A stretch of 64,000 bases of DNA from a virus (IMGVR_UViG_3300050120_000158:1-64000), one strand, 5' to 3'; shown: positions 164 to 63,645, counted from the stretch's first letter. Notes: generated by a model not told the origin, from the sequence alone. Numbers and translations: made by a program.

Positions 164-418
164 TCATGCCCTGCTCGCTTTCCTAAGCGCCTTCTTGGGC
201 ACGGGGAATTTGGGGGCGGGGGGTTTGGGTGCAGGAACCTGCACGTCGATCTTGACCGAACGCACGGTCTCAAGATCAAGATCAGTTAGCGCTCCGAGGG
301 CGTTGACGCTAGCTTCATACAGTAAGGCCCGCAAGTTCCCTTGCGAAGCCGGCTCTTTATTGACGACGACCCGTAAAGGTTCGACGGCCACGCCGTTGAC
401 GGTGACTTGGATTGACAT
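164..418 (-). CDS. hypothetical protein, paralog of 491..772
   Basis: Shares YEAxVNAxGA..LD motif with the neighbouring ORF. Confidence 0.7.
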   Translation of the reverse strand: MSIQVTVNGVAVEPLRVVVNKEPASQGNLRALLYEASVNALGALTDLDLETVRSVKIDVQVPAPKPPAPKFPVPKKALRKASRA

Positions 419-490
419 TGATTGGTTCCCACATATCGCGCATTATTGGCCGTAGCCGATGATGCTATTATACGCGAAATGCGGGGCTGA

Positions 491-772
491 TTAAAGAGAG
501 TTAGACAAGCCTTCATTGCGAGAAGGCATCGATACCGGCCCGTGCAGCGGAGTAAATATTTCAATGGTAATAGATGCGATCTTATCGTGATCGAGGCCGA
601 GGCACGCACCCCAAGCGTTAACACACGCTTCGTACATGACTGCGGTAAGATTATCACCGGCTAATGGCCGTCCGTTGGTAACCACCTTGATCGGAGTGGC
701 TCCACTCGCCATGATCGTGATCTTGATCGACGTGTGTGGTTCGGTTTCAGTACCGTGCTTCGTGCTAGCCAT
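491..772 (-). CDS. hypothetical protein, paralog of 164..418
   Basis: GAGGA RBS; shared YEACVNAWGA motif. Confidence 0.7.
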   Translation of the reverse strand: MASTKHGTETEPHTSIKITIMASGATPIKVVTNGRPLAGDNLTAVMYEACVNAWGACLGLDHDKIASITIEIFTPLHGPVSMPSRNEGLSNSL

Positions 773-971
773 TTAATTGTTCCTCGTTACTGTCTGTAAT
801 CGTGACACTACCGAGCGTGACACTTTCCTTTGACGTGGATACTGACTGTTGGATTTACGCATTACTATTTACTCCATACGTATTTACACTTTGTTAAAAA
901 CTCCCCCCGTATTTTCTTGATTAAACCACCGCGAAATTTTGCATGTAATCTTTGAGAAGTTTGCATGCTTT

Positions 972-2856: not shown

Positions 2857-3531
2857 GATGTAAGCTCCGGTATTAAGCCGCGTTGCATGCGGCGGGTTAA
2901 CGGTGCGGGTTGCGCCGTCGAATGCAAACCTGCCCGATGATTGTAAGACGCGCAAGCGAAATCGCGTACCCATAGCGATAAATCGAAATCACGTATTGTT
3001 GCAGACGTATGGCGCTAGGATTGCATTAGCGCGGCGCTGGTATGCCATCCGCTTGCCCGGTATGTTGCTATGGAATTGCCGAAATAACGCATAGCGCGCC
3101 AAATCGGTTTTTTAGTTTGCAGGAACCCGCAACGGTCCTAGTTGGCATGTCGATTGCAGACGCCGCAATGCACCTACCGCAACGCACCTACATGCTGCGG
3201 CGCATCTACCGCACAACACCTAACGCGTTGCACATACACGAATTGTTGCGACTTCATCAAGATTTGTTACTTCAACTCCATAGCAACAGTGTTACTCCAT
3301 TACAACATCGAGAGATGTAACTCCTTTACAACAACTACTCCATTGCAACATGTTACTGTAAGACAACATTCTACTTTCGACGTGTTACTTTCATACAACA
3401 ACTCCACCTTCTTACTACTTCTTCTCCAACTTCTTCAACAACTCCTTCTTCATCTTCTTTGTCTTACATACACGCACATTTACCTATCTACTTCTTGGCT
3501 GTAATACATGCGTACATTTACCTATCAGCAC

Positions 3532-3888: not shown

Positions 3889-4460
3889 TTGATTAACCCC
3901 TACTTATTGTTTGCCCCGGCTTGCTGCCGGTTTGAGTAGAATAGATAGTTTGCAGGAACCCGCAACGCCGGATTACTTTACATGGATAGCTGCCTTACAT
4001 AGCGTATTACACCATCTCCATCACCACCTACAACACCTTCTTCAACTATGTAATACACCAACAACTACAACAACATACTTGCACATTTACCTAGCGCCAT
4101 TTGTCTAGCTACTTCAACTTCATCACCACCTCCAACTTCTTCAATAAAAATTAGGATCGCCCTTTTGCCTCGCTACAACGTGAGGCAAGTTCATCTAGGT
4201 TGACTATGGGGGTAATGCCTAGGGGGTCTATGGAGTGTCCTATAGGAGGGTTATACGTTGTGTGTCATTTGCCTGCCTATCTTGGCTTTACTATATAGTG
4301 TCTCTTTACATGCGTCCGCGATTAGCAGTTTTTATTGCCCCGGCGATAACGTGGTTTCTAAGTGTTTGTGGGGATTGGTCTTACATCGTAATACGATGTT
4401 GCACTAAATAGGTGATTTCAAAGTGGGTGTGACTCATACAGAGTCTAATTATCTTGTAGG

Positions 4461-5108: not shown

Positions 5109-5411
5109 TTACTCCGGCTTTGCAGGTTCCTGCACGATTGGTTTGACACGTTGCGCTTCGATCCATACCCGAACGTCGGTCTTGAGGTATATATGGCCCA
5201 TCTTAAGTCGAACCGCCGCTCGCGGCATTAGCATAGGATAGTTGACAACTCGCCGCCAGATCGTTCCGCTTTTGAATTGGCATATCGCCGCTACTTCCGC
5301 CGCGCCAAGATAGAAACTCGGGTAGTCGTCAAGCCGCTTCAATGCCGCGTCAACATCGACGAGCATGCAGTTGTTGAAGCCGACCGGCCTATCGAGTTTC
5401 TTGATGGGCAT
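5109..5411 (-). CDS. AlpA/Xis-like helix-turn-helix protein
   Basis: LGAAEVAAICQFKSGTIWRR...P.AVRL...IYLKTDVRVWI pattern. Confidence 0.65.
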   Translation of the reverse strand: MPIKKLDRPVGFNNCMLVDVDAALKRLDDYPSFYLGAAEVAAICQFKSGTIWRRVVNYPMLMPRAAVRLKMGHIYLKTDVRVWIEAQRVKPIVQEPAKPE

Positions 5412-9106: not shown

Positions 9107-9188
9107 GATAACCTCCTGTTGCAATCCGCAGAATTGCGGGTCGTTGCAATTTGGACGTTATCTGGTTTGCAGGAACCCGCAAGCGGAT

Positions 9189-10378: not shown

Positions 10379-10478
10379 TATGGTTAGCTCCGGTTTGACC
10401 GTGTTGAGGGAATTAAACCGATTAATGGTCAGTGGTGCAAGTAATCGTTACTCGTCTTCGGGTGCAGGTTCCTGCAAG

Positions 10479-11235: not shown

Positions 11236-11663
11236 GTGTCGTTACGCTTTCCAAATACCATATCCCTAAATCGCTGAATTGTTTGCGGGCTTGGCCCCGG
11301 GAGGGCAACTACTGTGCCGGGAGGTAGGTTAAGATCGGACCTAACCGGTACCCCCATATGTATAGCGCCATTGTACGCATGGGGCGCTGGTGCGGTGTTT
11401 TCAGCCGCCTGTCGTAACCTCTCATATACATCGCGCGATACGACTTGCTCCGATGGTACTTCCCCGACAAGTCGGCTAGCCTGCCTAAAGGTATCGGCAG
11501 TAAGCGAGTTGCCTTCCGAGAAAAGCCTGCGTCGTTCTCTACGCGCTTTGTCCGCCTCTATAAATGCGTCAATGGCTACCTGTCCCGGCTTTGCAGGTTC
11601 CTGCACGGGTTCGATTGGTGGTACTGGTTTACTGAAACCAGCTATTCGGCGGGGCTTAAGCAT
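11232..11663 (-). CDS. hypothetical protein
   Basis: Operon overlap. Confidence 0.6.
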   Translation of the reverse strand: MLKPRRIAGFSKPVPPIEPVQEPAKPGQVAIDAFIEADKARRERRRLFSEGNSLTADTFRQASRLVGEVPSEQVVSRDVYERLRQAAENTAPAPHAYNGAIHMGVPVRSDLNLPPGTVVALPGPSPQTIQRFRDMVFGKRNDT

Positions 11664-14393: not shown

Positions 14394-15766
14394 AGATTAC
14401 TTACGGTTTCGTGCAGCCACTCCGGCCACCGAACGTCCTCCCAGTTGCATTCGATTGTCCCAAACTGATTAAAGGCGAGGTGTCGCCAGTTTACGCCCAT
14501 GTACGCGCCGCACAGTCGCAGATCGTAATGCTCTTGCGTTGCTCCGGGTTGCCACTCGGCGGGATAGCGCCGCAGTAGTGCTTTACCGGCCCAAGTATGG
14601 TTATCGTGAGCATATACCGGGATTGTGGGGGCTACCCCGAGGCGTAGGGAGGGGGCAGGGGCACGTAATACCGCGTTAAACGCCGGGGGCTGTAGCAGTC
14701 CCGCCCCGAACGGTTCGCCAAGCAAAAAATCGACCAGATTGTTTAATTCGTGGTACCCGATCCCTAGCTTGTTGAGCGCCCTCTTGGAGATTTGATCCAT
14801 GAGCATCCCTAGATGCTTTTTATCGACCTTCGCTATGATCGCCTTGTCACTGCAAAGCTCGTTGATGATCCAAGCCCGGTGTGCGTCGATATCGCCGGTC
14901 TTGAGTTTTTGCAATCCCTTAAGACCATATTGCGTAGTCATGCGGTCGCCGTCGCGAAGGCCGGTCTTGAGGGCTTCGATAAGCTTTTTCTTATGCTTAT
15001 CGTCAATGATGTTTCCGCCTTTGGCAACGTCCCGCCCGAATTCGTTGACGAGCATTTCATATCCGCGCATTTCTTCCATAAGGAAATCGAAATGCGACGG
15101 CAGTTCCCATTTCTTTTTGGACGCGCAAAATAGGGCGATGCCGGTACGCATGAGGCCGTAATCCATTTCGGCATTCGGTGGCCCGATCATGATTTTGGCA
15201 AGCCAACCGGCAAGAACGTGATCCCGGGTTTCCTCGTAAATGATATTAAGCATGTACTTGATGACGCCGCGAACACCCCGGAAGTTGGCTAGCATCGTTC
15301 CCCAGAATACCGCTTGATCGACACTACGCCGACGAAGTTCTTTGTGGAATGCGCTAACAACCTCAAACATGTTATAGCGGCTGCATACCTCTTTGGCGTA
15401 GGCCGCTTGCATAGCGGGAGGCCGACCTGCTTTGTCCACGATATCCGCCATGGCGCGGATTTTGTGGGAGCATGCGATGTTACGAACCCACATTTCGTTT
15501 TTGACGTGCCATTGCCACGGGCCGCCCCGGATGCATTTGCAGGTTCCTGCAAGAAGATCGACGTTGTATACCGGCCCTTCGATGTTCTTGGCCTTATGGG
15601 CGGCGGATGCATAAACGTCGGACTTGGTATTGAACGCCGGATGCAGCGGCATGAACTTGGTCGGAAGCGGCGTGTTAGACGGCAGCTTCTCGATAGGCGT
15701 ATCTATTATTCCGTCGTCTTTAGCAATAGGGGCTTTGGTCGGCAACTTGAGCCGCTTAAGTGCCAT
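14384..15766 (-). CDS. SWIM Zn-finger plus RarA/MgsA C-terminal-like domain protein
   Basis: CKC...CSHK (SWIM); FEVVSAFHKELRR..DQAVFW; IPVYAHDNHT; no Walker A. Confidence 0.6.
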   Translation of the reverse strand: MALKRLKLPTKAPIAKDDGIIDTPIEKLPSNTPLPTKFMPLHPAFNTKSDVYASAAHKAKNIEGPVYNVDLLAGTCKCIRGGPWQWHVKNEMWVRNIACSHKIRAMADIVDKAGRPPAMQAAYAKEVCSRYNMFEVVSAFHKELRRRSVDQAVFWGTMLANFRGVRGVIKYMLNIIYEETRDHVLAGWLAKIMIGPPNAEMDYGLMRTGIALFCASKKKWELPSHFDFLMEEMRGYEMLVNEFGRDVAKGGNIIDDKHKKKLIEALKTGLRDGDRMTTQYGLKGLQKLKTGDIDAHRAWIINELCSDKAIIAKVDKKHLGMLMDQISKRALNKLGIGYHELNNLVDFLLGEPFGAGLLQPPAFNAVLRAPAPSLRLGVAPTIPVYAHDNHTWAGKALLRRYPAEWQPGATQEHYDLRLCGAYMGVNWRHLAFNQFGTIECNWEDVRWPEWLHETVSNLWY

Positions 15767-18335: not shown

Positions 18336-19073
18336 TTACCTCGTTGGCGTTAAAAATAATCGGGTGGGTCGGCTAGTGTTTTGCAGAGTAGGCTTGGGTC
18401 TAAGGATTGTCAATGACGTTTTTATCGCAGATTGTTTGTTGATAATTCTTAAGTTACTGCAAGGCTTTGTGGCGGGATAACCCTGTGCAGTTGCAGGTTC
18501 CTGCAAGGCTTTATAATGCGGCAACGCCGGATGCTTTACAATCGTTAATGACTGCCCTTCAAGATTTGCCACGAGATATCTTGTCAGACAGAACGCATCC
18601 ACTAGGTTGTCGTTCCCTGATACGAACCCAAAACGCATATGAGCGGCGTGGGCCATATCGGCTTTCTCATGGGTTCCGTGGCCCATGAATTTCTTGAGCG
18701 CTTTAGGGGCTACTAGGTAAATATCAAATCCAAATATCGTTAGTGCAATGTACTTGATGGTGCCGATAAGTTCGGCTCTAGTAAACGCTTTGCCGGTATT
18801 CTTGCCGAATGCGTAGTCCTCAATAACAACCGCTGTATTACCGGCATACTTCCTGAATACGTCGATTGCGCAAGTGATAATGGCCGCTTGTCGTAGCGGG
18901 TCTTTGAGTGTCTGAAATACCTTGGTGCTAGTTACGATGGGGGATGGCTTAAAGAGGTTGTCAAACTGCCGAATAAGCGGGACCATCCCGGTGTCAGTCA
19001 GGGAAATATCCAGTCCGATGATCGTGTCGTATTTGACACGCCGGATTAAGTTGATCTTCCTAGGTAGCAACAA
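18336..19073 (-). CDS. RuvC-like Holliday junction resolvase
   Basis: IIGLDISLTDTG, VVIEDY, DNLVDA catalytic motifs. Confidence 0.85.
   Translation of the reverse strand: MLLPRKINLIRRVKYDTIIGLDISLTDTGMVPLIRQFDNLFKPSPIVTSTKVFQTLKDPLRQAAIITCAIDVFRKYAGNTAVVIEDYAFGKNTGKAFTRAELIGTIKYIALTIFGFDIYLVAPKALKKFMGHGTHEKADMAHAAHMRFGFVSGNDNLVDAFCLTRYLVANLEGQSLTIVKHPALPHYKALQEPATAQGYPATKPCSNLRIINKQSAIKTSLTILRPKPTLQNTSRPTRLFLTPTR
18385..18413 (-). promoter_or_regulatory. sigma70-like promoter
   Basis: TTGACA-N17-TACTCT. Confidence 0.55.
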
Positions 19074-20013
19074 TTACATTGCTCCGACGATTGAAACAGG
19101 ACGTGCATACCGGGCAGTCCTTGGCGCGTGGTACGGCGGGTCCATCGCATATTCTGGTTGGTAGAATATTACGATCTAGGCTTTCCTTGAGCAAGCGGGC
19201 ATTTTCAAGCATCGGCTTAATACGGTCGCCCGGCGATGCCCGCTTTGAGAACTCCCGGTACACTGCCTTGCCAAAGAGCTTCTTATTGCTCCGGTCGGCA
19301 TAGAGGTAGTTAACAAAGGGATCGATTTCATGCTTGATGATACCCTGCTCGATCATCCAGCGGATCATCCAGTAATAGAACGATGCCTGTAAGGTATGGT
19401 CGCCAAGCGGCGCTTCCAGCCGGTCGAAATCAATGCCCTCTCGGTCGAGGGTTTTAATCTCGTACAAGTGAAGAACGTTACCCCAAAGCAAGAACAGGTC
19501 AGGGTGACCGGTGATATTGTATTGCTCATGGAGTAGGTCGATTTCTTCGTAGATGCGTGCGTGCAGTCCACAGTGTTTGCAGGTTCCTGCAACCGGGTCG
19601 GGCATCAACTGCATTACGAAATGCGTCTTACCGCAAAGGCACCGCCAATTGCCCCAGACCTTATCGCCATGGGGACTGCGCTTGATAAAATCGTTGGTCA
19701 TATGCGCTTGCGCACCATGGCCAAAGGTATGCAGCAAGCTCATGCCAGCGGATATCTTGCGTACATAGCTCCCGTTGCGCTGTTCGATGAAGGATAGCGC
19801 ATGCTCACGCGGGCAAAACCGCCGTCGCGAGTTGGACTGGATCAGGTCGGATACGTGAATGTAATACTTGTCCCGCGTGTAGCCACGGGTCCGGTGGTAA
19901 TCAACATGCTCACTGTTGAGCGTTTCGGCGATTACACCGAACGGCTTCGTATCGCTTTCGACCGGCTTGAAGAACCTATTAGGCTCAGGTTTTGGAAGTA
20001 TCTTGAGCGGCAC
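19060..20013 (-). CDS. Cas4-like PD-(D/E)xK exonuclease
   Basis: CPR...GHPD...YEIKT...Q...Y, C-terminal Cys cluster. Confidence 0.8.
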   Translation of the reverse strand: MPLKILPKPEPNRFFKPVESDTKPFGVIAETLNSEHVDYHRTRGYTRDKYYIHVSDLIQSNSRRRFCPREHALSFIEQRNGSYVRKISAGMSLLHTFGHGAQAHMTNDFIKRSPHGDKVWGNWRCLCGKTHFVMQLMPDPVAGTCKHCGLHARIYEEIDLLHEQYNITGHPDLFLLWGNVLHLYEIKTLDREGIDFDRLEAPLGDHTLQASFYYWMIRWMIEQGIIKHEIDPFVNYLYADRSNKKLFGKAVYREFSKRASPGDRIKPMLENARLLKESLDRNILPTRICDGPAVPRAKDCPVCTSCFNRRSNVIVAT

Positions 20014-23655: not shown

Positions 23656-26204
23656 TATGCACCTAATTCAAAGTCTTGTGGCGTAAGGTAGGCCACCTCC
23701 CCCTGTTGGTCCGCATAAGAACCCTCCCTCGCCTTGGCGGCGCGCACAAGCCAAGGATATTCAAAAGGTTCCTTCGGTCCAAAGAGCGGGGCGGCTGCGG
23801 AGATGTCAGGGTATACCATAATGTGATCCCTGATTGAATACCATTCTGGTATTGGCTTGCCCGCCATCAACCGCAAGATACGTCCTACACCCTGTCTTAC
23901 GTTCTGCCTTGGCGTGAACTCGACGCCCATATCCAGTGCTTCAACGTCCGCGCCAGTATCAAACAATCCAAAGGTAGCCATCCTGATTTTGCAGGAACCT
24001 GCAACACGCTCTTGTTCCCCTCGCTTTACCTTTATCCTTTTACCTTTCAACGTGTACGCGCCAACGAGCATTCCGATATCCTCGGGGGCAACGCCCATGG
24101 CGATAAGGTGTTGCATGTTCTTGTAAAGCTGGTCTGTACGATCCGAAAGGCAGACTATTTCCCGGCCCCGCGTATACCCTTCGTATACGATGTTACAGAG
24201 CAATTGATTGCGATCATGGAAACGGGAAAGCAGGGAAGTCATGAAGCCTTCGTTGCCGACCTGTACCTGCGGCGGCAACGTCTTGTGATAGTCGATGACA
24301 AATATCTGCGGCTTCTCAACCTCTTGCTTGGAAACAATTCTAGGCTTTCCCAAGTGAAGGCTGCAAACCTTCAACAAGGCATCTCGTCGGTTTGTCGCGG
24401 TAAAGCCAATTCGGACTGAGGCCGGGTACCGGGACAGAATTCGACCCATGCTTGGCGTACCAATTTTGTGCCATTCATCAAAAATAAGCGCTGTAAAATA
24501 TTCCCTGAGGGCAACTGGATAGTCTCTACGCGCCAGCGAGGCGGCGACGCCCAAGACAATGAGTCGTCCTTCGTAGTCCTGCGTATCTTGCTGTATGTGG
24601 CCGACATATTGATTGAACCACTGTTGCCCCGTTGTGTCGATGATACGCTGACGCCACTGATTTAACAGGTAGGTTGTCGGTACAGTAATTAGTGTCGGGG
24701 CCTGAATAGCATTCTCGATAACATAGAGCGCCGAGATAGTCTTGCCGGTATTATGATGAATTACAAAGTCGGCGGTTAGATAGAGATGATCGCAATCAAG
24801 CCTAAAACCATAGTAGTCCCCTTTGCCAACTGGATGCACCGAAAATCCAGTAACTAACGGGTTTTTCTTTTGGGTGCGCGGGTTACAAAACTTCCTAAAA
24901 AGACGCACGGGTAATTCATGCATTTCGCCATAAGCATGAACGCGGTAATAAGTCACATCGTTAACGATCTTTAGTGCAATTGAAGCGCTATATCCTAGGC
25001 TCCGGCAAATAAACGCGGTGTCGTCTGCAAGCTGCCTTGACTTAAAAGTAAGCTCGTATCCATTGCCAGTTAATGAACCATCGCTATCGATAAGGCCCGA
25101 TAGAGTTTCTTTGCGTACTTCGATAGACCCGCACTTGTATTGGTGAGGAATAAACTTGGTTCCGCAAGAAACTGATCGTAGCCCTAGATAGCTAAACGCA
25201 TCAATCAAATCATTACAAATACCGCCGCGATTTCCGGCTGTAATATGGTAATTACTAGACCTATTATTTTTTTGTAGCTCCCGTCTAACGTCTAAATTAA
25301 AACGGCCCGCTTCATCGTAAATTGCATCAACGATTTCCCGATCCATCGTGGTAACGGTCGCTTTATTAGAATGTCCGTCACCAAGCCATATGCCTAGAAA
25401 ATACGGAGATATTGGCAACTTACCGTTAGGTGTCGGAAAATTAACACCGACTCGACGAAGCTTATGCAAGTGCTTAAATCTTGCCGTCCGTTCTAGATAA
25501 TCGGAAACAGTAACGTTTATAATTTCACCAGCTTGCTGAGATGCGTGATTGCGCGGGTCACGAATGCCGTGAAATTCCCGTGTTCTAACAAGAGAAAGAA
25601 TATGGCTCGCATTAACAGTGAACGGTTTACCACCTCGTTTAGGCGTAATAGAGAACATTTCTTCGTTGCCGGAAATAAGTTCAAGGACTTTACGCGGCTG
25701 GCTATCCGGCCCCATAAGCAAGTCCCCTATAGTGACCGCTTCAACCGGCTTAAGCGTCCCGCCAAACATGAGAATAAGAGTGCCCTCCGCGTGACATCCT
25801 GTTCTGGCGTTGGCAACGATATCCACAGGCTTAGGGCCGCGAACAGCAGCACACAGAGTTTCCATAAAGTCTTTTTGCTTTTGGTCACGGGGCTTGATCT
25901 TTCTGACAAAAAGCTCGGGCTGCGGTCGCTTGAACGTGGTGATGTTGATGAACTTGGTGACGCCTAGCTGTTCAATGCCGTAGGAACGGGGGACGCCGAT
26001 ATAGCCGGGGACGCTAAGGTCATAGCAGATAATTTCGGGGTTCGCTGCGTCAACCGTAGCCTCCGCTACGTAGTCTTCCTCGAAATCGACCTTCTCGTCT
26101 TGCTTGGTATAGCGGACGCGCAGCTTGTCCATAAGGGGCTGCGCGTCAACTAGGTTGAGCGGCACGTACATCAAGGCATTAACGAAGGTCTTACGTGCCA
26201 ACAT
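23655..26204 (-). CDS. superfamily 2 DNA helicase (intein-containing)
   Basis: ARTG|TGKT Walker A split by the intein; DEWH; FTAT; QGVGRILR. Confidence 0.9.
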   Translation of the reverse strand: MLARKTFVNALMYVPLNLVDAQPLMDKLRVRYTKQDEKVDFEEDYVAEATVDAANPEIICYDLSVPGYIGVPRSYGIEQLGVTKFINITTFKRPQPELFVRKIKPRDQKQKDFMETLCAAVRGPKPVDIVANARTGCHAEGTLILMFGGTLKPVEAVTIGDLLMGPDSQPRKVLELISGNEEMFSITPKRGGKPFTVNASHILSLVRTREFHGIRDPRNHASQQAGEIINVTVSDYLERTARFKHLHKLRRVGVNFPTPNGKLPISPYFLGIWLGDGHSNKATVTTMDREIVDAIYDEAGRFNLDVRRELQKNNRSSNYHITAGNRGGICNDLIDAFSYLGLRSVSCGTKFIPHQYKCGSIEVRKETLSGLIDSDGSLTGNGYELTFKSRQLADDTAFICRSLGYSASIALKIVNDVTYYRVHAYGEMHELPVRLFRKFCNPRTQKKNPLVTGFSVHPVGKGDYYGFRLDCDHLYLTADFVIHHNTGKTISALYVIENAIQAPTLITVPTTYLLNQWRQRIIDTTGQQWFNQYVGHIQQDTQDYEGRLIVLGVAASLARRDYPVALREYFTALIFDEWHKIGTPSMGRILSRYPASVRIGFTATNRRDALLKVCSLHLGKPRIVSKQEVEKPQIFVIDYHKTLPPQVQVGNEGFMTSLLSRFHDRNQLLCNIVYEGYTRGREIVCLSDRTDQLYKNMQHLIAMGVAPEDIGMLVGAYTLKGKRIKVKRGEQERVAGSCKIRMATFGLFDTGADVEALDMGVEFTPRQNVRQGVGRILRLMAGKPIPEWYSIRDHIMVYPDISAAAPLFGPKEPFEYPWLVRAAKAREGSYADQQGEVAYLTPQDFELGA
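24750..25796 (-). mobile_element. intein with LAGLIDADG endonuclease (349 aa)
   Basis: Starts CHAEGT, ends HHN followed by Thr; LGIWLGDG and LSGLIDSDG; lower GC. Confidence 0.92.
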
Positions 26205-26209
26205 TAGAA

Positions 26210-26641
26210 TTATAGCCTTTTCGCTTTTGGGTGTTTCATACCAACGCGAGTACCGCAGTAGGCTAGGAACCCCGGAGCGTTTAAGTTCTCTTTCTGTGTT
26301 CCCCATCCAACGTTGTCGGCCCGGTTAATTCTAGAGTTTTCATTCAAATGCATCGCTACCGCTTCCGGGAATGGTCTAGGGCCGTGGAACGCTTCACAGA
26401 TTAGCTGCGCTATTCTGTAAGTTCTTGTCGTTCGTTCCGGCGTCTTATCGCAAATAACCAAAACGTATCGTTTTTCATCCTCCTGCCAATGACCTATTTT
26501 AGGATCACCGGTATAAAGCCTAACACCCCGTCCGTTCGGCATTGCCGCATAGTAAGGTATTACTCTAACCCGACCGTAAGACGAAACTTCATATCGCGGT
26601 ACGGTCGGGCTAACGCGCCATTCTTCTGTAGGTTGAGGCAT
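26210..26641 (-). CDS. NUMOD4-HNH homing endonuclease
   Basis: EWR..YEVSSYGRVR; EAFHGPRP; MHLNE..N..DN. Confidence 0.85.
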   Translation of the reverse strand: MPQPTEEWRVSPTVPRYEVSSYGRVRVIPYYAAMPNGRGVRLYTGDPKIGHWQEDEKRYVLVICDKTPERTTRTYRIAQLICEAFHGPRPFPEAVAMHLNENSRINRADNVGWGTQKENLNAPGFLAYCGTRVGMKHPKAKRL

Positions 26642-35500: not shown

Positions 35501-36811
35501 TCAGATCATATGGCTCATGTCTTGTTGCACGGTTTCTTCTTCCTCGTTATTCGAAGCTGCACTTACAAAGTCGAAACATACCGGGGAGAACTCGTACTTG
35601 AATTGAAAGCGCCCACCCTCGCCTTCGCGGCCTTTCATGATGGCCGCCCAGCGTCGGATTTCAGATAGCGGAGGGAACGCTTTTGCGACGCCCAAGACGC
35701 ATGACGATGCTTGGCCGATAACATCGGTTTCCGCGATCTTGGCGAGAGACAGGTGCGAAGTAGGGTTTGTGTTCTGTTGACTGTCCCGGGTCCGCACTCG
35801 TTCCGCCGAACGGTTGAACTGTGTGCTTTGGACAAGCGGTCGGCGGCGCTCAATGGTGATCCGCTTCAAATCTTCGATTGTATCGCTGATCGTTTCCCGG
35901 CGACCATCGGAATTCTTGCGCTTGGTGCTGGACTTAAGCAAGTACCCCGCATCAACGAAAATGATATCCGGGTCCGTTGCGTCCGCTACCGATTGGACGG
36001 TTTCTACTGATTTCTTGAAACCCCCAGCGATGACATTGAACGGAATGCCATTCTGTACCATCCCCGTTGCATGATCCTGCAACTGGTTTGCCATGAAAGA
36101 CGATAGACGCCCCTTGCGGATTAGATCGGGATTGATCTTGGTGTGAATACCAAACAAACGCCGGATCAATTGGGTTACGCCAAGTTCCATAGATACGAAC
36201 AGGACGTTATACCCGGCATTCCAAGCGGCATACGCCATGATCAGCATCATGTAGGTTTTGCCAACACCAATACGCCCGATCACGGAGATAAGATCGTCCG
36301 CGAACCATCCGCCAGTAATGTCGTTTAGGTAATTCCAGCCGGTCGGGATACCGCGCAATCCAGAGGTGCGGTGCGCGTCGTCATAGTCCTGTAGAACGCT
36401 CTCTAGCCCGGCTTGCAGGGTCGCGAACTCAGACGACGCGGATACGAAGCTGGCCGACCGCTGGATAACTTCACGGGCCATGGCAACGAAAGCATCCGGG
36501 TCTTTGCGTTCGATGGCATTTCGGAATTCATTGAACGGGTCCATCAGGGCGCTATAGAGTGCGCGCTTCCTGCCTTGATCCAAGTAGAACGATAGCGGCT
36601 GAGCTACCTGCAACGTAGTTATGCCGGTCTGCCGCCTAAACATGTTGGCGTCGGGAAATGCCCGGTACTGCGTAACATGGTCGCGCAGATATCGGAACGC
36701 CGCTAATTCGTCGGCTTCTTCGAAGTAGCTTTCAGGAGTATCGCGGATCGCGGCGGTGCTGCCGCTTCTACGCAAGGCCGATAAAAGATTAACGCCCGTA
36801 GGTGTTGCCAT
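35501..36811 (-). CDS. dnaB: DnaB-like replicative helicase
   Basis: GIPTGW..LNDITGG; GRIGVGKT; SMEL; QFNR. Confidence 0.9.
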   Translation of the reverse strand: MATPTGVNLLSALRRSGSTAAIRDTPESYFEEADELAAFRYLRDHVTQYRAFPDANMFRRQTGITTLQVAQPLSFYLDQGRKRALYSALMDPFNEFRNAIERKDPDAFVAMAREVIQRSASFVSASSEFATLQAGLESVLQDYDDAHRTSGLRGIPTGWNYLNDITGGWFADDLISVIGRIGVGKTYMMLIMAYAAWNAGYNVLFVSMELGVTQLIRRLFGIHTKINPDLIRKGRLSSFMANQLQDHATGMVQNGIPFNVIAGGFKKSVETVQSVADATDPDIIFVDAGYLLKSSTKRKNSDGRRETISDTIEDLKRITIERRRPLVQSTQFNRSAERVRTRDSQQNTNPTSHLSLAKIAETDVIGQASSCVLGVAKAFPPLSEIRRWAAIMKGREGEGGRFQFKYEFSPVCFDFVSAASNNEEEETVQQDMSHMI

Positions 36812-37333: not shown

Positions 37334-37935
37334 TATTTATCGTCCCATTTTGGTAGACCAAGACTTACCCGTGCGGCATTGCTCGCAACCGGGTCGGCTT
37401 TATAGCGGTTAATTGGAATACGCTTTAACGGGGCAGGCGGGGCCGCTGGCGCTGGTTTCGGTATTGGCCGGGCCGCGATAGGGGCAGGCGCGGCAACCGT
37501 ACCGTTGAGCCGCTTACCAAGCGGGAGGCTGGCTGCGATTTCCGGCTTGCTCCGCATGAAGCTTGCATGAACCTGCACGAGGTTAGGGATGACGAACTTT
37601 AAGTCCGGCGCTTCCGGTCCTCGCGGGGTACTGAGCGAATAGCTGAAAACCTGCGTCCGAAGTTGCTGCCAGTTCGCAACAATCCAATAAAGGAAGTTGC
37701 ACACGTCCTCATGGCGAAGCCCGCGCTTCGCAACCGCCTGCTTAAGGTTGTTGCCAACCCGGTCAGGGTAGCTAATGACGCTTTCAGGATAGAACTCACG
37801 AAGGGCGTCCTCCCATGTCTTACGCCAAGCGGAATAGTTGCCCTTGGCAATGTTCTTCTTTCGAGAGGTTTGGGCTTTTTCTAAGGTAGACGCGACCACT
37901 GCGCTAAGTAACGCCTGTGTAGCTTGGTTCGGCAT
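37333..37935 (-). CDS. hypothetical protein (possible initiator C-terminal partner)
   Basis: ORF; position in replication cluster. Confidence 0.6.
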   Translation of the reverse strand: MPNQATQALLSAVVASTLEKAQTSRKKNIAKGNYSAWRKTWEDALREFYPESVISYPDRVGNNLKQAVAKRGLRHEDVCNFLYWIVANWQQLRTQVFSYSLSTPRGPEAPDLKFVIPNLVQVHASFMRSKPEIAASLPLGKRLNGTVAAPAPIAARPIPKPAPAAPPAPLKRIPINRYKADPVASNAARVSLGLPKWDDK

Positions 37936-38621: not shown

Positions 38622-38828
38622 TAGTACGATTTACGCGGCGCTGTCGCAATCGCGATGTACTTGGTTTTGCTGCCATATTCGGGGTCTTGACATAGAGCAA
38701 ATCGCGCTTGCAGGTTCCTGCACCCGCATCGCACATTCTTGGCACGTTTCTTGCTTGTTTGGGATACTGCGACGTTTTGTCGCGGTCATGGCGCAGCGCG
38801 GTAAGACTAGAACGCTGCGGGAACAAAA

Positions 38829-41378: not shown

Positions 41379-41379
41379 T

Positions 41380-42612: not shown

Positions 42613-42665
42613 GTAAGGAGTTAAAAGGACTAAACCCCGCGCCAGCGTTTGCAGGTTCCTGCAAG

Positions 42666-44912: not shown

Positions 44913-44953
44913 AGTATTATTCCCTTGTGAGTTGTTTGCAGGTTCCTGCAAGT

Positions 44954-46717
44954 CTAGCCGTCGAGACCCTTACCCTTCGACGGCTTGGCAGGCATATTGA
45001 TCCGACGCGCGCCGGGCAGTGCCCCTGCCTTAACCGGCAAAGTCTTGGGCGGTGCAACGCCGTCAAAGTGCATTCCAGATGACGCTGGCTTGGCGTTGTT
45101 CTTGGCCCATTCGTGCATGGCCTGCACTCGATCCGGGAAAGCATCGTGCAGCGGACGGATAGCTTTGGCCTCGTCCAAGAACACTTTGACGCCGGGCTTT
45201 TTCTGCTTGAGGTTGAAGCTCTCAAGCAACCCGGTCTTGACGAGTTCTTCAAGCTCCGCGCCGACGAAGTGATCCGTCGCCATGGCGATAGCGTTGATAT
45301 CCTCGCCGCTCAACGAGTTTTCGTGGCCCCGGTTCTTGAGGTGGATTTTGATGATTTCTTCGCGTTCTTCGACCGAAGGGAACGTAACAGCGAAGATTTC
45401 ATCGAGCCGCCCCTTTCGCATAAGCTCCGGGGGAAGACCCGTCACGTTATTGGCAGTCATAACGACGAAAACGGGGTACTTTTCGCTGTCCCTATCCTGC
45501 ATCCACGAAAGGAAGCTACCGAATACACGCATGCCCACGCCCCCGTCACCGGCTGCGCCGTTCATGCCCCCGAATGCCTTGTCCACTTCGTCAAGCAGCA
45601 AGACGCAAGGGGCCATGCTTTCGATCATAACGAGGGCTTGTCGCATCCGGCCCTCGCTCTCGCCGATGAACTTGCCGAAGATTTTCCCGATATCGAATTT
45701 GACGAGCGGGACAAGCAGCGTGCTTGCCGTAGCCTTGGCGACGAGCGACTTTCCGCCGCCCGGGGGGCCAACGCACATGAAGCCCCTCGGAACTTCTACG
45801 CCGTAGCCCTTAGCTTCCGGCGAATAGGCATTGACCCGCTTTTTGAGCCACGCCTTGAGCAAGTCGAGACCGCCAACGTCCGACATATTCCGGGGCTGCA
45901 TCAATTCGAGAATGTCTGTCTTCTTGATCGCTTCGGTCTTGTGCTTGAGAACAACCTTGATGTAGTCGTCGGGATGCTGCTCGCCGTCCTCCCGAGTTTC
46001 GATTACGTTCTGGGTTTCAACGATACCGAGCGCCAGCGCCGTCTCGAATTCGTTGATCGTCATGCCGACCGCGTTCTGCACGATGGTATCGATCTGCCCC
46101 GCATCGAAATCCGGCTGGGCGCTGTCCTCGATGCTGTCCATGGTCTGCTGATAGCAGTCCAAGAGTTCGGCATGGGACGGCGGACGAAAATCCATGACGT
46201 GAATATCGTCCTCAAGCTCAATCGGTATTTTGACGTTCTCAGGAACGAGAAACACCAACCGGTGATCGTGTTCTCGGGCCTTAGCAACGAAGTCTCGAAT
46301 GTCCTGCTGGATCATCGCCTTGTCGAAGTGGAAGTGCAGATGGTGCAGCACAAAGATCGCCGGGGCCGTTTCCTTTATGGCAAACTCAAGGGCCATGTGA
46401 ACGTCGATAGTCCGTTCGATAGGGCCTCCTACCGGCTTTGCGATATCAATCCCATCCGTCAAACCGGCTGACGGGTCGGGAAACCGTTGCCAACCCTTGT
46501 TGCAGGTCCACATGAGGAATTGGACCGTTTTCTCGACGCTGATATCCTGAATGCAAGACGCCGCCCGTACAAGTTCCCGGGTACGAATGGCATAAACACC
46601 GATAGCAGCATTCGAGTTTTGCTTGAACTCGGTTTTGAAAAGGTCCGCGTTTTTGATTTCGCGGGTTTCGGCAGTGGTCATAAGCACGGGCATCACAAAG
46701 CTCCGATTTGAGGGCAT
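44954..46717 (-). CDS. Ycf46-like AAA+ ATPase
   Basis: DVGGLDLLKAWL; GPPGGGKS; LDEVDK; TAN..LPPELMRKGRLDEIF; degenerate first AAA domain. Confidence 0.9.
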   Translation of the reverse strand: MPSNRSFVMPVLMTTAETREIKNADLFKTEFKQNSNAAIGVYAIRTRELVRAASCIQDISVEKTVQFLMWTCNKGWQRFPDPSAGLTDGIDIAKPVGGPIERTIDVHMALEFAIKETAPAIFVLHHLHFHFDKAMIQQDIRDFVAKAREHDHRLVFLVPENVKIPIELEDDIHVMDFRPPSHAELLDCYQQTMDSIEDSAQPDFDAGQIDTIVQNAVGMTINEFETALALGIVETQNVIETREDGEQHPDDYIKVVLKHKTEAIKKTDILELMQPRNMSDVGGLDLLKAWLKKRVNAYSPEAKGYGVEVPRGFMCVGPPGGGKSLVAKATASTLLVPLVKFDIGKIFGKFIGESEGRMRQALVMIESMAPCVLLLDEVDKAFGGMNGAAGDGGVGMRVFGSFLSWMQDRDSEKYPVFVVMTANNVTGLPPELMRKGRLDEIFAVTFPSVEEREEIIKIHLKNRGHENSLSGEDINAIAMATDHFVGAELEELVKTGLLESFNLKQKKPGVKVFLDEAKAIRPLHDAFPDRVQAMHEWAKNNAKPASSGMHFDGVAPPKTLPVKAGALPGARRINMPAKPSKGKGLDG

Positions 46718-46775: not shown

Positions 46776-47585
46776 CTAGCGCGGAATGGTTATCTTGCGC
46801 CTTGGGCGGTAAGACGCTTGCTCCGGTTTAGCCTGTTTATCCTGCTTGGGTCCATCCCAGTGGGTGCCGCCTGTCCACAGCTCGTTTGCAGGTTCCTGCA
46901 ACGGTCTCACGACTAGCGTTACCTCAAACGATCCGCTGGGCATCTCTTGGATACTCTGGACCAGAACCGGGAGACCGTTATAAACGATAGTTGCCCCTAT
47001 CTGATAGGAAACCAACTCAAATTCCTGCGCTAGGTGTAAGAACGTCGCCCCTTCTGGGTAGGGTGGTGGGGGCTGCTCACGAACACAAACTATATTGAAT
47101 ACACCGGTAGCTTGCTGCACGCAAGCAGACACAAACCACTGCTCCCCTACTCCGTCGCGCTCTATAGTAACAGCATCCCCAATCCTCATTGACTGCGTAG
47201 CGTGGAAATCAAGTCGTTCCGTTATAGGAACAGTAAACGATGAATAGGTATACTGGGGTTCGGGGATCAGGCCCCCAAGGAGTGCCGCCGAAAGTCTATC
47301 AGCAGCCTCGCGCATCGCGCTATCTAGCCCCGGCGAATGTATCTCGGCAATTTCTTCGATAGTCCTCGTCTCATGGTCGATCCGGCGCACCGACATAGTT
47401 ACCGGAACTATCTCGCAGGGAGCATCAAGGTAGCGCCGATACTCCGCTAGGGATGTTTCGTCTAGCTCCTGTCCGGGTAACGTCCGCGTAACCATGTCAC
47501 GAAATGCATCAACCGGATGGGTGACGCTCCAATCCTCCCACGGGATAAATCGAGGGTTATTATCGCTTTCATCCTCTGGCGGCAT
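46776..47585 (-). CDS. hypothetical protein
   Basis: ORF. Confidence 0.6.
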   Translation of the reverse strand: MPPEDESDNNPRFIPWEDWSVTHPVDAFRDMVTRTLPGQELDETSLAEYRRYLDAPCEIVPVTMSVRRIDHETRTIEEIAEIHSPGLDSAMREAADRLSAALLGGLIPEPQYTYSSFTVPITERLDFHATQSMRIGDAVTIERDGVGEQWFVSACVQQATGVFNIVCVREQPPPPYPEGATFLHLAQEFELVSYQIGATIVYNGLPVLVQSIQEMPSGSFEVTLVVRPLQEPANELWTGGTHWDGPKQDKQAKPEQASYRPRRKITIPR

Positions 47586-48302: not shown

Positions 48303-48508
48303 GGTGCAGGTTCCTGCAAATTAAAATTAAAGAGGGCCGCGCCAGCGCGATTGCTTGTGGGGTCAATCGGCGGCGCGGCCCTTATCCCGGAGCGGCTATC
48401 AGGTGCAACGACCCGGAGCGGATCAAGACGACCGTTCGGAATTGCGGGGCGTTGGTTCCCCGCATTTGGCAAATATAAAGCGAGGCTCTTGTTATTGCAA
48501 GTGCGAAA

Positions 48509-54130: not shown

Positions 54131-54165
54131 TTTTTATTCCTAGTTTGCAGGTTCCTGCACGGAGA

Positions 54166-56807: not shown

Positions 56808-56828
56808 GGCGTTGCAGGTTCCTGCAAG

Positions 56829-60900: not shown

Positions 60901-62068
60901 TGTTCGTCCAAGAGAGCGTGAACGTGCCATCCCATATACCTGTATAGGCCCGGGTGTATGCGTTGTAATTCGACGGAACTCGGATGATCCGGCCGTAAAC
61001 ATCATAGCCGCGCGTCGGTATTCCGTTGCTATCGTACTCTGTGTCCGCTGTAATACCGAACACCATTGAGTCACTGTACATGACTTGGCTATCGATGATC
61101 TCTGTATAACTCGCAAAAGTGATCTGGTCCTGCGTGTAAGTCGCATAATTCGCCGCGCCGTTAAAGTCGGTCGCATCCGGGGTAATTCTGATGACACGGA
61201 TTTCCCATGGAGCGCCGCCCGCAGGAAGCTCCATTCGGTAATCTTCGATAAACCCGGACTCGGTTTTGCCGGTCAGATTAATCCATGCGTTTAAGTTATG
61301 GTAGGCGTTATAATTTCCAAGTCGGCCAACGCCGTTGCCGAACGTCTCAGATAGCGTCGTCTCGTACTGTGCATAGGGTATCGCAAGGGCGCTAAACTCT
61401 GGATAAAACGTTGTTGCCGCGCCAGCGTTGACCCCGGCATAGGTGCCGCCAACAATCCATGTAGGGCTACCTAGTGGGCGATAATAGAAAATAAGGTTGT
61501 ACTGGCCGCCCGCAGGCACGTCCAATGATGTCATGCATTTAACGCCATCGGTCGGCCCCGACGGATTTGAAGTATACCGTATGAAAGACGAGTCATAATA
61601 ACCGGTAGTCCACTGCCCTCCATAGCTCATGTATTGGAGTTGAAACAGAACCGTAGTCGGGTTCGCGTCCCCGTTCGCGTCACCTTTGACAAAATTGCCG
61701 ACGCTGATTTTGATCCTGACCGCGCTAACATTCGCGTTTTGAACGGTCTGGACGATTGGGCCATTATTCGCCTTGACGATTTGCCCAACCTGCACCTCGT
61801 TCTCGACATCGGAAAATCCCGTCATGATGGATTGTTCGGGATAGCCTAGACGCCAATCCGCCGTCACCCCCAAAACGCTGAATACCCCATCCGTAGGGCT
61901 TTGTAGAGGCACCCTATTGAAGTAGATAGAAGACAATCCGGCGGCGGGGCCAACGCACGGCCCTTCGGACACAAGATCGAGGCAACGCACAAGCGTTTTC
62001 GACATGAGTGTATCGGCGGCAACATAACCAGTAGAGCCGCCGCTGCTGCCGCCAAAAAGACCACCCAT
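57926..62068 (-). CDS. tail tip/host specificity protein J
   Basis: DLVSEGP; WDGTF...WTNNPVW..DILT..RYGLG; GCTSRGQARR.GRW. Confidence 0.92.
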   Translation of the reverse strand: MGGLFGGSSGGSTGYVAADTLMSKTLVRCLDLVSEGPCVGPAAGLSSIYFNRVPLQSPTDGVFSVLGVTADWRLGYPEQSIMTGFSDVENEVQVGQIVKANNGPIVQTVQNANVSAVRIKISVGNFVKGDANGDANPTTVLFQLQYMSYGGQWTTGYYDSSFIRYTSNPSGPTDGVKCMTSLDVPAGGQYNLIFYYRPLGSPTWIVGGTYAGVNAGAATTFYPEFSALAIPYAQYETTLSETFGNGVGRLGNYNAYHNLNAWINLTGKTESGFIEDYRMELPAGGAPWEIRVIRITPDATDFNGAANYATYTQDQITFASYTEIIDSQVMYSDSMVFGITADTEYDSNGIPTRGYDVYGRIIRVPSNYNAYTRAYTGIWDGTFTLSWTNNPVWCFLDILTHERYGLGQWINDDYLDFSTLYTIAKYCDEFVEDGRGGTEPRFVFNTQITSQSNAYDVLNMFAGTFRGMIYWATGQVMASQDAPGPVSRVVTRANVLSSGFAYTGVPLNARHSVVLVTWNDPANFYTPTVDVVEDADLIARFGYITIDITAFGCTSRGQARRMGRWTLDTEKYATDVVTYRAGWDHADAVPGEIISVSDPAYAGLRQGGRVVSATATSVTMDAPYTFSNLETYVMSVVIPTWGRVAVLNGSNVINGSGTAFNNSLLPLAANDIIIFEGDNRQYELAATPTSAGSLALTTVYAGTSRTGQNFSVFRSGTLYYSSFVTVVDVPVTPGLNGAYAVVPLAGTLPAAPNNGVPFVITGTDVAPRLFRIVNNREIAPQTFEISALEYDPTKYARVETGYQAITTKKLIDDTSQIAAPTNIVCSEAIYVANNQVRTKLTISWGPVPDTRINYYQLVYSFAGSPFQILSGTSDVSYTMTDETPGLYTFGVRAIATIGGNSAFSYISYTALGKSAPPADVTHFTATRTISGVQLSWNAVADLDVVGYEIRQGSSWDGGSLVTTQMNGTTEFVVLNDTNNHTFFIKALDDTKHYSVNAVSVVTSVAPPDDVQNFYATQDNDRVIFNWNKVNGTDIRYEIREGDSFAIGRKVALVSGNTANVMYPLTQNRKFWIKSLSGVGLYSLNAGFAEVLLVAVQTRNVIYTDDQSALAWPGFCYGMTPSGFDNSELSMQAGVLTGHYEFQIDTGYPDDAQVRARTWFDYNFVSDAATPQWQNATFLWTDPQAQVAWQPLLDLGNAQVNWFIATIKAAATYPVTVQEVWSFEIGITGTLNGTAATQGKYVTGVGATYNGTSIVCDEPGYTISVAATFTLQITVRFTPSDIFGAGVFDQALQLAKVGQYSGSHMVLWYKNDTGPRLLLSDGNPANDISMTVSGTGEQRWELAIVQDSFTRSLYMYDLNSTLASRASASIAASGTYSTVAA

Positions 62069-62080
62069 CTATTTTATTCC

Positions 62081-62857
62081 TTAAGCCACTAGCCCAACGG
62101 CAGGTTGTTGCGGTATTGCAAACGTAAGGCTGTTCTCTGTTGGTGGAGATGAAACAACCGCGAGTGTCACCGGATTAAGCGACTCATTGTACAGCCCGGC
62201 GCTAACTACTACGGAACCAGCGATAACGCGACCGTAGACCAAGGGTACGCATACCCCCTCTGTATCTGTGTTGGCCGCGCCATTGAACGTGAAGCTACTG
62301 TAATTTTGGCCCGCCGCTGGCGTTAACATAATCGATATGCCTGCGAGCGCGATTGCGGTACCGGCCAGCGCAAGGGTGCCCCATGACATGCCACCAAAAA
62401 TCGACGTGCCGGGAATAGCTGCGCCCATGCCGCCCATGAAACCAGCGGTCGAAGAAGCACCAACCGCGCTTGCGGCGTCCGCACCAAACAAGCCGCCAGC
62501 CGCCGCTCCGCCCGTCAAGGCAATAGCCAAGATCGAGACCCCGATGATCGCCATAACCATTCCCTTGCCCATACCAGAGCCGGATATTGCGGGAATGAAA
62601 TGGATCGTGCCGTCTGGAAAATAGAAGTCCAAAAAGTTGTCATTACAGTAAATGCCGTGATTGGGCTCGCCAACGACAACATGGTACGAACCATGCTGCA
62701 ATGCCCCGCTGAATACCTTCGGGAAGTTGGCCTCAAGCAATCGCACTGCCTGCGAGGGGCTTTTGACCGCAAGCAGAAATTCCGACTGGCCAACAGCGTC
62801 GGCAAGGTGACCGTGCAGGACGACTTTACGCCTGCGCTGCGCTAAGGGTGCTGTCAT
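62081..62857 (-). CDS. tail assembly protein I
   Basis: LHGHL; IHFIPAISG; VPLVYGR..GSVVVS. Confidence 0.88.
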   Translation of the reverse strand: MTAPLAQRRRKVVLHGHLADAVGQSEFLLAVKSPSQAVRLLEANFPKVFSGALQHGSYHVVVGEPNHGIYCNDNFLDFYFPDGTIHFIPAISGSGMGKGMVMAIIGVSILAIALTGGAAAGGLFGADAASAVGASSTAGFMGGMGAAIPGTSIFGGMSWGTLALAGTAIALAGISIMLTPAAGQNYSSFTFNGAANTDTEGVCVPLVYGRVIAGSVVVSAGLYNESLNPVTLAVVSSPPTENSLTFAIPQQPAVGLVA

Positions 62858-63645
62858 GTTGCAGGTTCCTGCAAGGATTTGTGGCGGAATGAGTGGGTCG
62901 AGAACTTACGCCAGTTATACACGCTTTCATCGGTCGATAGTCGTGGCCGCGTTACTGAACCGTGCAGATGGTGGCGCACCAGTCCGTTCCCCAAATACAC
63001 ACCACAATGATTAGTCGTGGGGGCGGTGGTAAGTTTACAGATCATTGCATCGCCGGGCTGCATATCTAAGAAGCCGATTTCGAAGAACCCCGCTTCTTGG
63101 AAATGGGTCAAGAACATGTTGCTGTCCGTGGCTCCGTGAGCCTGATCCCACCACTGATCCTGCCGTGGGAAGTTCGGCAAAAGGATGTTGTACTTGTTCC
63201 TGTAGTGGTCGCGGCCCAGTGCGTAGCAGTCATAAACACCATGAATAAACGGGCGGCCTATCTCAGGTGCAATCGGAACATCGTCGCCAAAGAAAACAAC
63301 GTCGATAACGTTGCTATGCCCCATGACGATAATGCCGAACGGTATCTTTGCGGTGATCTGCTTTTCCATGTCGTGGAAACTCGGGCACCGCTGCCCGCGA
63401 GGATGCGAGTGCATCACCGCCTGTAAAGACCCATGTTTCTCGATAAGCATAACGAGTTCAACCGGGTTAACTTCAAAGCTTTCTTGCGGGAGCGGATGGA
63501 CATTTGCCATGGGGAAGTATTCGCCGCCCACAACCGCTCCGCAGCTTTCATTCGGAAAGGCTTTCAGCGCATGGTCCATAGCATCGTGGACCGCACTCTC
63601 AGGGACCGGATACAGCCCTTGTTGTCTCTGCCAGAATTGGTACAT
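62854..63645 (-). CDS. tail assembly protein K (JAB plus NlpC/P60)
   Basis: PNESCG; HSHP; DCY; HCGVYLG. Confidence 0.9.
   Translation of the reverse strand: MYQFWQRQQGLYPVPESAVHDAMDHALKAFPNESCGAVVGGEYFPMANVHPLPQESFEVNPVELVMLIEKHGSLQAVMHSHPRGQRCPSFHDMEKQITAKIPFGIIVMGHSNVIDVVFFGDDVPIAPEIGRPFIHGVYDCYALGRDHYRNKYNILLPNFPRQDQWWDQAHGATDSNMFLTHFQEAGFFEIGFLDMQPGDAMICKLTTAPTTNHCGVYLGNGLVRHHLHGSVTRPRLSTDESVYNWRKFSTHSFRHKSLQEPAT

Follow-up and report, generated by a model that had tools for sequence, protein, structure and literature searches.

A regularly spaced palindrome tiles the chromosome of a siphovirus-type phage and is most likely a docking site for a phage-encoded DNA-binding protein

Cluster O mycobacteriophages carry a 17-bp dyad repeat (TGTTCGG-NNN-CCGAACA in Corndog), reported to be dyad symmetric, probably bound by a dimer and without a link to promoters, whose function has been left open since 2015 (Cresawn et al. 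2015, PMC4351075). Cluster A stoperators are dozens of short repressor sites scattered in a temperate phage genome, many of them in transcribed regions (PMC4351075), and the ParB family reads palindromes of 13 to 16 bp, from which one member, the KorB clamp, slides up to ~1.5 kb (PMC11790492). Here we describe a palindrome that recurs about once every 2,000 bases along the chromosome of a phage represented by the IMG/VR record IMGVR_UViG_3300050120_000158; the first 64 kb of this record (positions 1-64000; 64,000 nucleotides), hereafter the window, were analyzed together with the rest of its 94,476 bp, which are estimated to be 95% complete. The phage has a G+C content of 53%, and our own gene calls, used throughout, place almost all of its genes on the minus strand. 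Judged from sequence, these palindromes are most likely docking sites of a DNA-binding protein that the phage itself encodes.

A pattern scan found 27 exact copies of TGCAGGWWCCTGCA (TGCAGG-AA/TT-CCTGCA) in the window, at positions 230 to 62860, and 42 in the whole genome, while 100 shuffles gave a chance expectation of ~0.01 for the window. The spelling is nearly all or none: against the 42 exact copies stand only six with one mismatch (five of them in the window) and two with two mismatches. In unrelated viral contigs, the palindrome occurs only as single chance copies. A preliminary description of the window had listed 27 exact copies and three copies of one variant, all of which we recovered at their reported places along with two one-mismatch copies that it had not counted (Table 1). 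It had also described the element as a 16-bp palindrome, which is only partly borne out: the invariant core is 14 bp, and the full 16-bp form, with T...A flanks, is present in 16 of 27 window copies and 23 of 42 genome copies, the left flank being T or G and the right flank A or C. The center of exact copies is always AA or TT (17 and 25 copies genome-wide), never AT or TA, and on the transcribed strand the two orientations stand at 25 to 17; the 13 to 17 division reported earlier for 30 window copies is correct. Isolated half-sites are not enriched outside the dyads (15 and 23 observed versus 16 and 19 expected); therefore, the functional unit is the whole dyad, which fits a dimeric binder, and we rejected a Chi-like half-site or short single-strand motif of 5 to 8 nt. 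The three window copies of the variant TGCAGGAACCCGCA share an identical change, CCTGCA to CCCGCA, in identical orientation, and all three are intergenic among the small genes of the left arm; they may be a subclass of site or reflect recent spread of one variant.

The sites are spaced far more evenly than random placement would produce, as had been proposed. For the 48 genome sites, the coefficient of variation (CV) of the gaps is 0.55, compared to 0.98 ± 0.13 for random sets, none of 20,000 of which was as regular; the smallest gap is 394 bp, versus a random median of ~30 bp. When gaps from seven genomes were pooled, only 5 of 309 were shorter than 500 bp (∼20% expected), with a mode of 1 to 2 kb. 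The 3.4-kb gap at 23990-27390 holds two insertions, a LAGLIDADG intein in a helicase gene and an HNH_3/NUMOD4 open reading frame (ORF). Both are specific to this phage and account for the length of the gap: G001, its nearest relative, lacks the intein and the HNH_3 ORF, and the corresponding interval there measures 1,920 bp, matching the ~1.9 kb predicted from subtraction of the insertions. The accompanying claim that HNH genes and the intein are free of sites also holds, since none of the three HNH_3 genes has a copy, nor does the intein. 

Sites lie both within and between genes. Genome-wide, 27 of 48 copies are in ORFs, with ∼86% of the genome coding; in the window, our gene calls place ~17 of 30 copies in ORFs and 13 between them, so that the presence of both classes stands but the earlier division (16 in coding sequences, 14 intergenic) shifts slightly. 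In-gene copies cluster toward gene ends, with nine or more in midgene, and intergenic copies often fill spacers of 35 to 55 bp directly after a stop codon. As described previously, the palindrome is read in two frames, LQ/VQ-E/V-PA and AG-T/S-CK; the third frame is never used. All Q[EV]PA (20 of 20) and AG[TS]C (4 of 4) peptides in the proteome are encoded by the palindrome, and its codons TTG, CCT, and GCA are minority codons with 16 to 18% usage. This peptide and codon use, together with frame independence and the conservation of positions in G001, strongly supports the earlier proposal that selection acts on the DNA and not on the protein.

We compared site positions by protein-anchored mapping; nucleotide alignments to distant relatives were too sparse. 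G001, which is ~101 kb, is classed as a provirus and has proteins 65 to 70% identical to those of the phage; its 49 copies have the arms of the phage palindrome, but their central dinucleotide is free, and their gap CV is 0.49. Of 29 mapped phage sites, 23 lie ≤30 bp from a G001 site, compared to 3% at random, and where nucleotide alignments with G001 (~68% identity) cover a site, both 6-bp arms are intact in 10 of 15 cases. The G002 genome has a different spelling, TGCAG-CCGT-CTGCA, in 61 copies, and despite this change it keeps 5 of 20 phage site positions (3.7% at random); more distant relatives resemble the phage in site density but no longer in site positions. Drift of the spelling, with density kept and some positions surviving, is what a coevolving phage-encoded reader predicts.

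Equivalent lattices, each with its own spelling, are widespread among related siphoviruses of ~80 to 110 kb and dozens of uncultured contigs, as we found by de novo counting of inverted repeats. Rhodobacter phage RcMenchie has 48 copies of T[G/A]CAATCGATTGCA (gap CV, 0.47), Agrobacterium phage JP1 has 33 to 37 of TTGCAAA-NN-TTTGCAA (0.49), Rhizobium phage L338C has 47 to 54 of TGCAAC-NN-GTTGCA (0.66), and Pseudomonas phage SM1 has 30 to 34 of TGCAA-N4-TTGCA (0.61). Spacing is thus regular (CV, 0.47 to 0.66; P about 0) in these four phages, in G001, and in the phage studied here. Vibrio phage VA-RY-4, which shares the core genes, carries GCAATTAATTGC at 23 quasi-regular sites, of which 14 fall within ORFs; for the 23 sites, the CV is ~0.6 by hand estimate, and a looser core pattern gives 30 sites with a gap CV of 0.79 (P = 0.11). 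Among IMG/VR loci that encode the AAA ATPase of this lineage, 36 of 80 contain a palindrome with at least four exact copies in 12 to 22 kb, compared to 2 of 53 unrelated viral loci. Two control loci on unrelated IMG/VR contigs (L027 and L114) have repeats of their own, GAAGT-N7-ACTTC (10 copies) and CGACG-N7-CGTCG (7 copies). Around a 38%-identical ATPase homologue on a metagenome-assembled genome contig (L255; CAWJLW010000006.1, 91323-112561), [T]GCAAG-TA-CTTGC[A] recurs 22 times within 21 kb, approximately once per kb; this chromosomal region probably represents a prophage whose lattice is denser.

Of the systems introduced above, the Cluster O repeat is the most similar: it too consists of invariant inverted repeats found genome-wide at approximately one per 2 kb, about half of them in genes, with an A/T-rich asymmetric center (TTT/AAA) and no orientation rule, and it is absent from its host (PMC4351075). 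Our recount gave 34 to 37 copies in Corndog. The Corndog repeat differs from the phage palindrome in spelling, length, and spacer, and, unlike it, is irregularly spaced (CV, 0.94; P = 0.44), with sites denser at one end of the genome. Beyond an AAA ATPase, Corndog shares with the phage only one weak match (tblastn) and a ParB-like N-domain (iterated profile search). Our literature search found no lattice described outside Cluster O mycobacteriophages: palindromes are mentioned neither in the Rhodobacter capsulatus phage paper in which cluster RcF is defined (RcTiptonus, RcDurkin, and other 94-kb phages) nor in a 2025 survey of ParB-fold proteins, phages included. Cluster A stoperators are asymmetric 13-mers oriented with transcription, whereas the phage sites are dyad symmetric, orientation free, and evenly spaced, and lattices of the phage type also occur in apparently lytic relatives.

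The third comparison, to KorB-OB of the IncP-1 plasmid RK2, ParB-parS, and Noc-NBS, rests on the pairing of a ParB-fold protein with palindromes dispersed over a replicon, a pairing that the phage may share. Outside the window, it encodes a 286-aa protein that matches Pfam ParB_N (E = 2.8e-8); in a Foldseek search, the AlphaFold model of this protein aligned with Noc, KorB, and ParB across its N-domain and its helical DNA-binding domain (E ~1e-8 over ~200 columns). A ParB_N protein is encoded by 11 of the 12 lattice genomes, namely this phage, G001 to G005, RcMenchie, JP1, L338C, SM1, and Corndog, which include all of the evenly latticed genomes examined; in the twelfth, VA-RY-4, none was detected. 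In all 25 IMG/VR loci where a close relative of this protein is encoded, the commonest inverted repeat is a palindrome of the lattice family (2 to 14 copies each; at least four in 18 loci); no such palindrome was found in 13 loci with only weak ParB-like matches. The ~1.5-kb sliding range of KorB also matches the lattice interval. The systems differ in scale, with ∼48 sites evenly tiling the phage genome whereas the KorB, ParB, and Noc systems have at most a dozen, located close to promoters or origins, and we found no ParA or KorA partner in the phage.

The reading we prefer, tentatively and at slightly less than an even chance, is that the palindromes form an array of docking sites for a coevolving, phage-encoded dimeric protein, most likely of the ParB/KorB/Noc fold, that coats or compacts the phage DNA. 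The array would offer high-affinity sites on double-stranded DNA throughout the genome, each read as a whole dyad by a dimer whose specificity changes along with the spelling of the site. Selection would keep approximately one site per 2 kb, remove close neighbors, and fill long gaps, leaving the entire chromosome within 1 to 2 kb of a site. By analogy with ParB and KorB, each site would serve to load the protein, which would then slide or spread, perhaps gated by nucleotide, over the 1 to 2 kb between sites, and such spreading could coat or compact the whole phage DNA, for its organization, its protection, or its global control.

Several observations weigh against a ParB-type reader. VA-RY-4, a latticed member of the same lineage, has no ParB_N protein that we could detect, even with custom hidden Markov models. 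The phage protein and its relatives have an invariant SGHHRxKA where CTP-clamp ParBs have the Box II motif GERRxRA; Box I is NPNEQ-D/E rather than QPR, and Box III is R-R/E-N-x-L-R rather than ENLQR, with only the N and R kept. The SGHHR variant is usually annotated as "ParB-like nuclease." Because these phages descend from a common ancestor, the co-occurrence of ParB-like gene and lattice is confounded. Among proteins of a single motif class, the putative recognition helix shows no visible increase in conservation, and a comparison of specificity residues in the HTH regions of the ParB-like and MerR-like proteins with motif class yielded no clean pattern, phylogeny again being a confounder. 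Finally, only this phage and G001 have a site immediately upstream of the gene for the ParB-like protein, and we rejected an autoregulatory role for it. A ParB-fold clamp or coat is the leading but unproven candidate reader.

If the reader is instead another phage-encoded dimeric protein with a helix-turn-helix (HTH), such as the 173-aa MerR-type or the MarR-like protein (Table 1), the sites could act as a genome-wide transcriptional roadblock or silencer, a dyad analogue of the Cluster A stoperators. We regard this as unlikely, although several points speak for it: MerR and MarR proteins are dimers that bind dyad sites, the 173-aa family is found in 8 of 9 proteobacterial lattice phages (we did not detect it in G004), including the Vibrio phage that lacks a ParB_N protein, many sites occupy short spacers directly past stop codons, and the phage is temperate, with a tyrosine integrase and a provirus, G001, as its nearest relative. 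Lattices are, however, also present in phages considered lytic, such as Samunavirus SM1, and in nontemperate Cluster O (PMC4351075). Moreover, L338C and G003 share the spelling TGCAAC-NN-GTTGCA, yet the HTH recognition helices of their 173-aa proteins differ strongly; most sites are away from predicted promoters, judging by gene layout, and operators do not need regular spacing. Rather unlikely, too, is a role as targets of DNA transactions: site-specific nicking or cleavage of the sort known from the nicked genomes of T5-type phages, for example by an HNH enzyme or the ParB-like "nuclease"; signals, at the spacing of Okazaki fragments, for fork restart or for priming of the lagging strand; or recombination hotspots for RecA, the Cas4-like exonuclease, and helicase. 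The ~2-kb interval resembles the length of an Okazaki fragment, what all lattice phages, the Vibrio phage included, have in common is the replication-recombination module, and the GHHR variant of the ParB-like protein is common in proteins annotated as nucleases. Yet the lack of half-site enrichment argues against Chi-like single-strand recognition, cutting a symmetric site on both strands would break the genome ~48 times, and known primases read trinucleotides, not 14 bp.

The placement of many copies a few bases past stop codons or in last codons, in a genome with nearly all genes on one strand, raises the question of whether the element works as RNA, in the form of a short hairpin (7-bp stem, 4-nt loop) that stabilizes or processes polycistronic transcripts at gene ends. 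Its 21-nt context does fold, at −7.4 kcal/mol, but this hairpin is weak (z about −2), both center orientations occur on the transcribed strand (see above), and nine or more copies are in midgene; nor would an RNA element explain spacing that ignores gene boundaries or the perfect conservation of both arms, including nonpairing flanks. We consider it very improbable. Short palindromic repeats such as REP and HIP1 are common in chromosomes, but the idea of a selfish or host-derived dispersed repeat (REP/MITE-like) with no phage function is scarcely credible: at 14 to 16 bp, the element is too short for mobility, its copies are found at orthologous positions in a diverged relative and are written into essential genes with overly regular spacing, and unrelated viral contigs have only the single chance copies noted above. 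Nicking, priming, RNA hairpins, and selfish repeats are all less likely explanations than a lattice of docking sites.

As for the AAA ATPase, it is the only protein common to all six comparison phages by BLAST, Corndog included, and was therefore considered as a reader of the sites. Its sequence and model are those of a tandem-AAA, Cdc48/p97-type unfoldase without a DNA-binding domain, so it is probably not a site binder; in addition, among the matches listed, homologues with 33 to 37% identity are common in cyanobacterial and other lattice-free chromosomes. For these reasons, we retain it only as a lineage marker. Downstream of the ATPase gene, ~1 kb apart, lie genes for a DUF1257 protein and two small conserved proteins, all of which are present in 8 of 10 comparison genomes, the exceptions being Corndog and the Vibrio phage; together with the ATPase, the three may constitute a module. 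Upstream of the ParB-like gene is the gene for a highly conserved 570-aa protein. It had no matches in Pfam or PHROG, but relatives are annotated as glycosyltransferases and its language-model look-alikes are GT-B enzymes; Cluster O phages likewise carry glycosyltransferases. We take the GT-B likeness as a lead, not as evidence for DNA modification.

The remaining gene content of the phage includes a structural module of the siphovirus type, with capsid, portal, terminase, and a J-like tail protein, and a replication-recombination module comprising DNA polymerase I, a DnaB-like helicase, primase, RecA, a Cas4-like exonuclease, and the intein-containing SF2 helicase. A megablast search of 20 kb against GenBank phages gave no matches. 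The host is probably Bradyrhizobium or a relative, because the nearest homologues of two G001 proteins are named as Bradyrhizobium proteins in the source databases.

Table 1. Lattice sites of the window and other features of the phage (window coordinates, unless marked as genome coordinates)
Feature	Coordinates	Strand	Context
Lattice site, exact, AA	230..243	.	In weak ORF
Lattice site, exact, AA	1685..1698	.	In ORF, frame LQVPA
Variant site TGCAGGAACCCGCA	3118..3131	.	Intergenic
Variant site TGCAGGAACCCGCA	3951..3964	.	Intergenic
Lattice site, exact, TT	5121..5134	.	12 nt from ORF 3' end
Variant site TGCAGGAACCCGCA	9168..9181	.	Intergenic, 7 bp from HNH_3 gene
Lattice site, exact, TT	10463..10476	.	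Intergenic; position shared with G001
Lattice site, exact, TT	11592..11605	.	Intergenic; position shared with G001
Lattice site, exact, AA	13425..13438	.	Intergenic; position shared with G001
Lattice site, exact, TT	15538..15551	.	In 467-aa gene, AGTCK; position shared with G001
Lattice site, exact, TT	18492..18505	.	RuvC-like gene, LQEPA; position shared with G001 and G002
Lattice site, exact, TT	19578..19591	.	Cas4-like exonuclease gene, AGTCK; not conserved in G001
Lattice site, exact, AA	21676..21689	.	RecA gene 5' end, LQVPA; position shared with G001
Lattice site, exact, AA	23990..24003	.	Helicase gene, AGSCK; position shared with G001
Lattice site, exact, AA	27390..27403	.	SSB-like gene, LQVPA; position shared with G001
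Lattice site, exact, AA	29907..29920	.	In ORF, LQVPA
Lattice site, exact, TT	31624..31637	.	DNA polymerase I C-terminus, VQEPA; position shared with G001
Lattice site, exact, TT	34254..34267	.	DNA polymerase I N-terminus, AGTCK; position shared with G001
Lattice site, exact, TT	34868..34881	.	In ORF, LQEPA
One-mismatch site TGCATGATCCTGCA, possibly decayed	36068..36081	.	DnaB-like gene; no G001 counterpart
One-mismatch site TGCATGAACCTGCA, possibly decayed	37564..37577	.	No G001 counterpart
Lattice site, exact, TT	38709..38722	.	Intergenic, upstream of integrase
Lattice site, exact, AA	40579..40592	.	Intergenic
Lattice site, exact, TT	42650..42663	.	Intergenic, 2 bp past stop codon; position shared with G002
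Lattice site, exact, TT	44937..44950	.	Just downstream of AAA ATPase gene
Lattice site, exact, TT	46887..46900	.	In ORF, LQEPA
Lattice site, exact, TT	48305..48318	.	Intergenic
Lattice site, exact, AA	50187..50200	.	Position shared with G001
Lattice site, exact, AA	52699..52712	.	Intergenic; position shared with G001 and G002
Lattice site, exact, TT	54146..54159	.	Fills 35-bp spacer between tail genes; position shared with G001
Lattice site, exact, TT	56813..56826	.	Intergenic; position shared with G001
Lattice site, exact, TT	62860..62873	.	Last codons of tail gene (LQEPAT-stop); position shared with G001 and G002
Two uncharacterized proteins (418 and 284 aa)	17073-18329 and 21805-22659	(-)	Recombination module; conserved in 9 of 9 proteobacterial lattice phages, including the Vibrio phage
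MerR/excisionase-type HTH protein, 173 aa	23134..23655	(-)	Second candidate binder; in 8 of 9 proteobacterial lattice phages
SF2 (ResIII) helicase gene	23655-26306	(-)	Hint + LAGLIDADG intein; HNH_3/NUMOD4 homing-endonuclease ORF adjoins
Site-free insertions in one interval	24750..26641 (intein, ~24750-25796; HNH_3/NUMOD4 ORF, 26210-26641)	(-)	Stretch interval from ~1.9 to 3.4 kb
Small gene	42666-42863		Downstream of AAA ATPase gene
DUF1257 protein	42913-43356	(-)	Downstream of AAA ATPase gene
Small gene	43364-44002		Downstream of AAA ATPase gene
AAA ATPase, tandem-AAA, Cdc48/p97-like	44954..46717	(-)	Lineage marker of lattice phages, also in Cluster O
ParB/KorB/Noc-fold protein, 286 aa	Genome 85267-86127 (outside window)	(-)	ParB N-domain and helical DNA-binding domain
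570-aa protein	Genome 86505-88217 (L225:6505-8217)	(-)	Upstream of ParB-like gene
MarR-like protein	Genome 89158-89700		Candidate binder

Because the DNA signal is strong enough to dictate which amino acids are encoded at its sites in the genes for polymerase, RecA, helicase, portal, and terminase, it must matter for some important stage in the life of the phage, and the density of the lattice is constant among phages of Bradyrhizobium, Rhizobium, Agrobacterium, Rhodobacter, Pseudomonas, and Vibrio. If a ParB-type clamp does load at the sites, this would be the first virus found to tile its whole chromosome with loading sites, and a new use of the ParB fold. A broader scheme, which we consider speculative and on the whole unlikely, is that this widespread lineage of ~80- to 110-kb phages, including therapeutic Pseudomonas phages of the genus Samunavirus, wraps its chromosome during replication in a phage-specific kind of chromatin, in which a nucleotide-gated ParB-fold clamp, loaded at the palindromes every ~2 kb, would coat the genome from end to end, the coinherited Cdc48-like unfoldase would strip clamps before replication or packaging, and spelling and reader would coevolve as a private self-mark. 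Several relatives with lattices (RcMenchie, JP1, and SM1) can be cultured, which makes the question directly testable. The lattice is also a sequence signature by which this group of phages can be recognized, and a constraint to respect when such phages are engineered or recoded.

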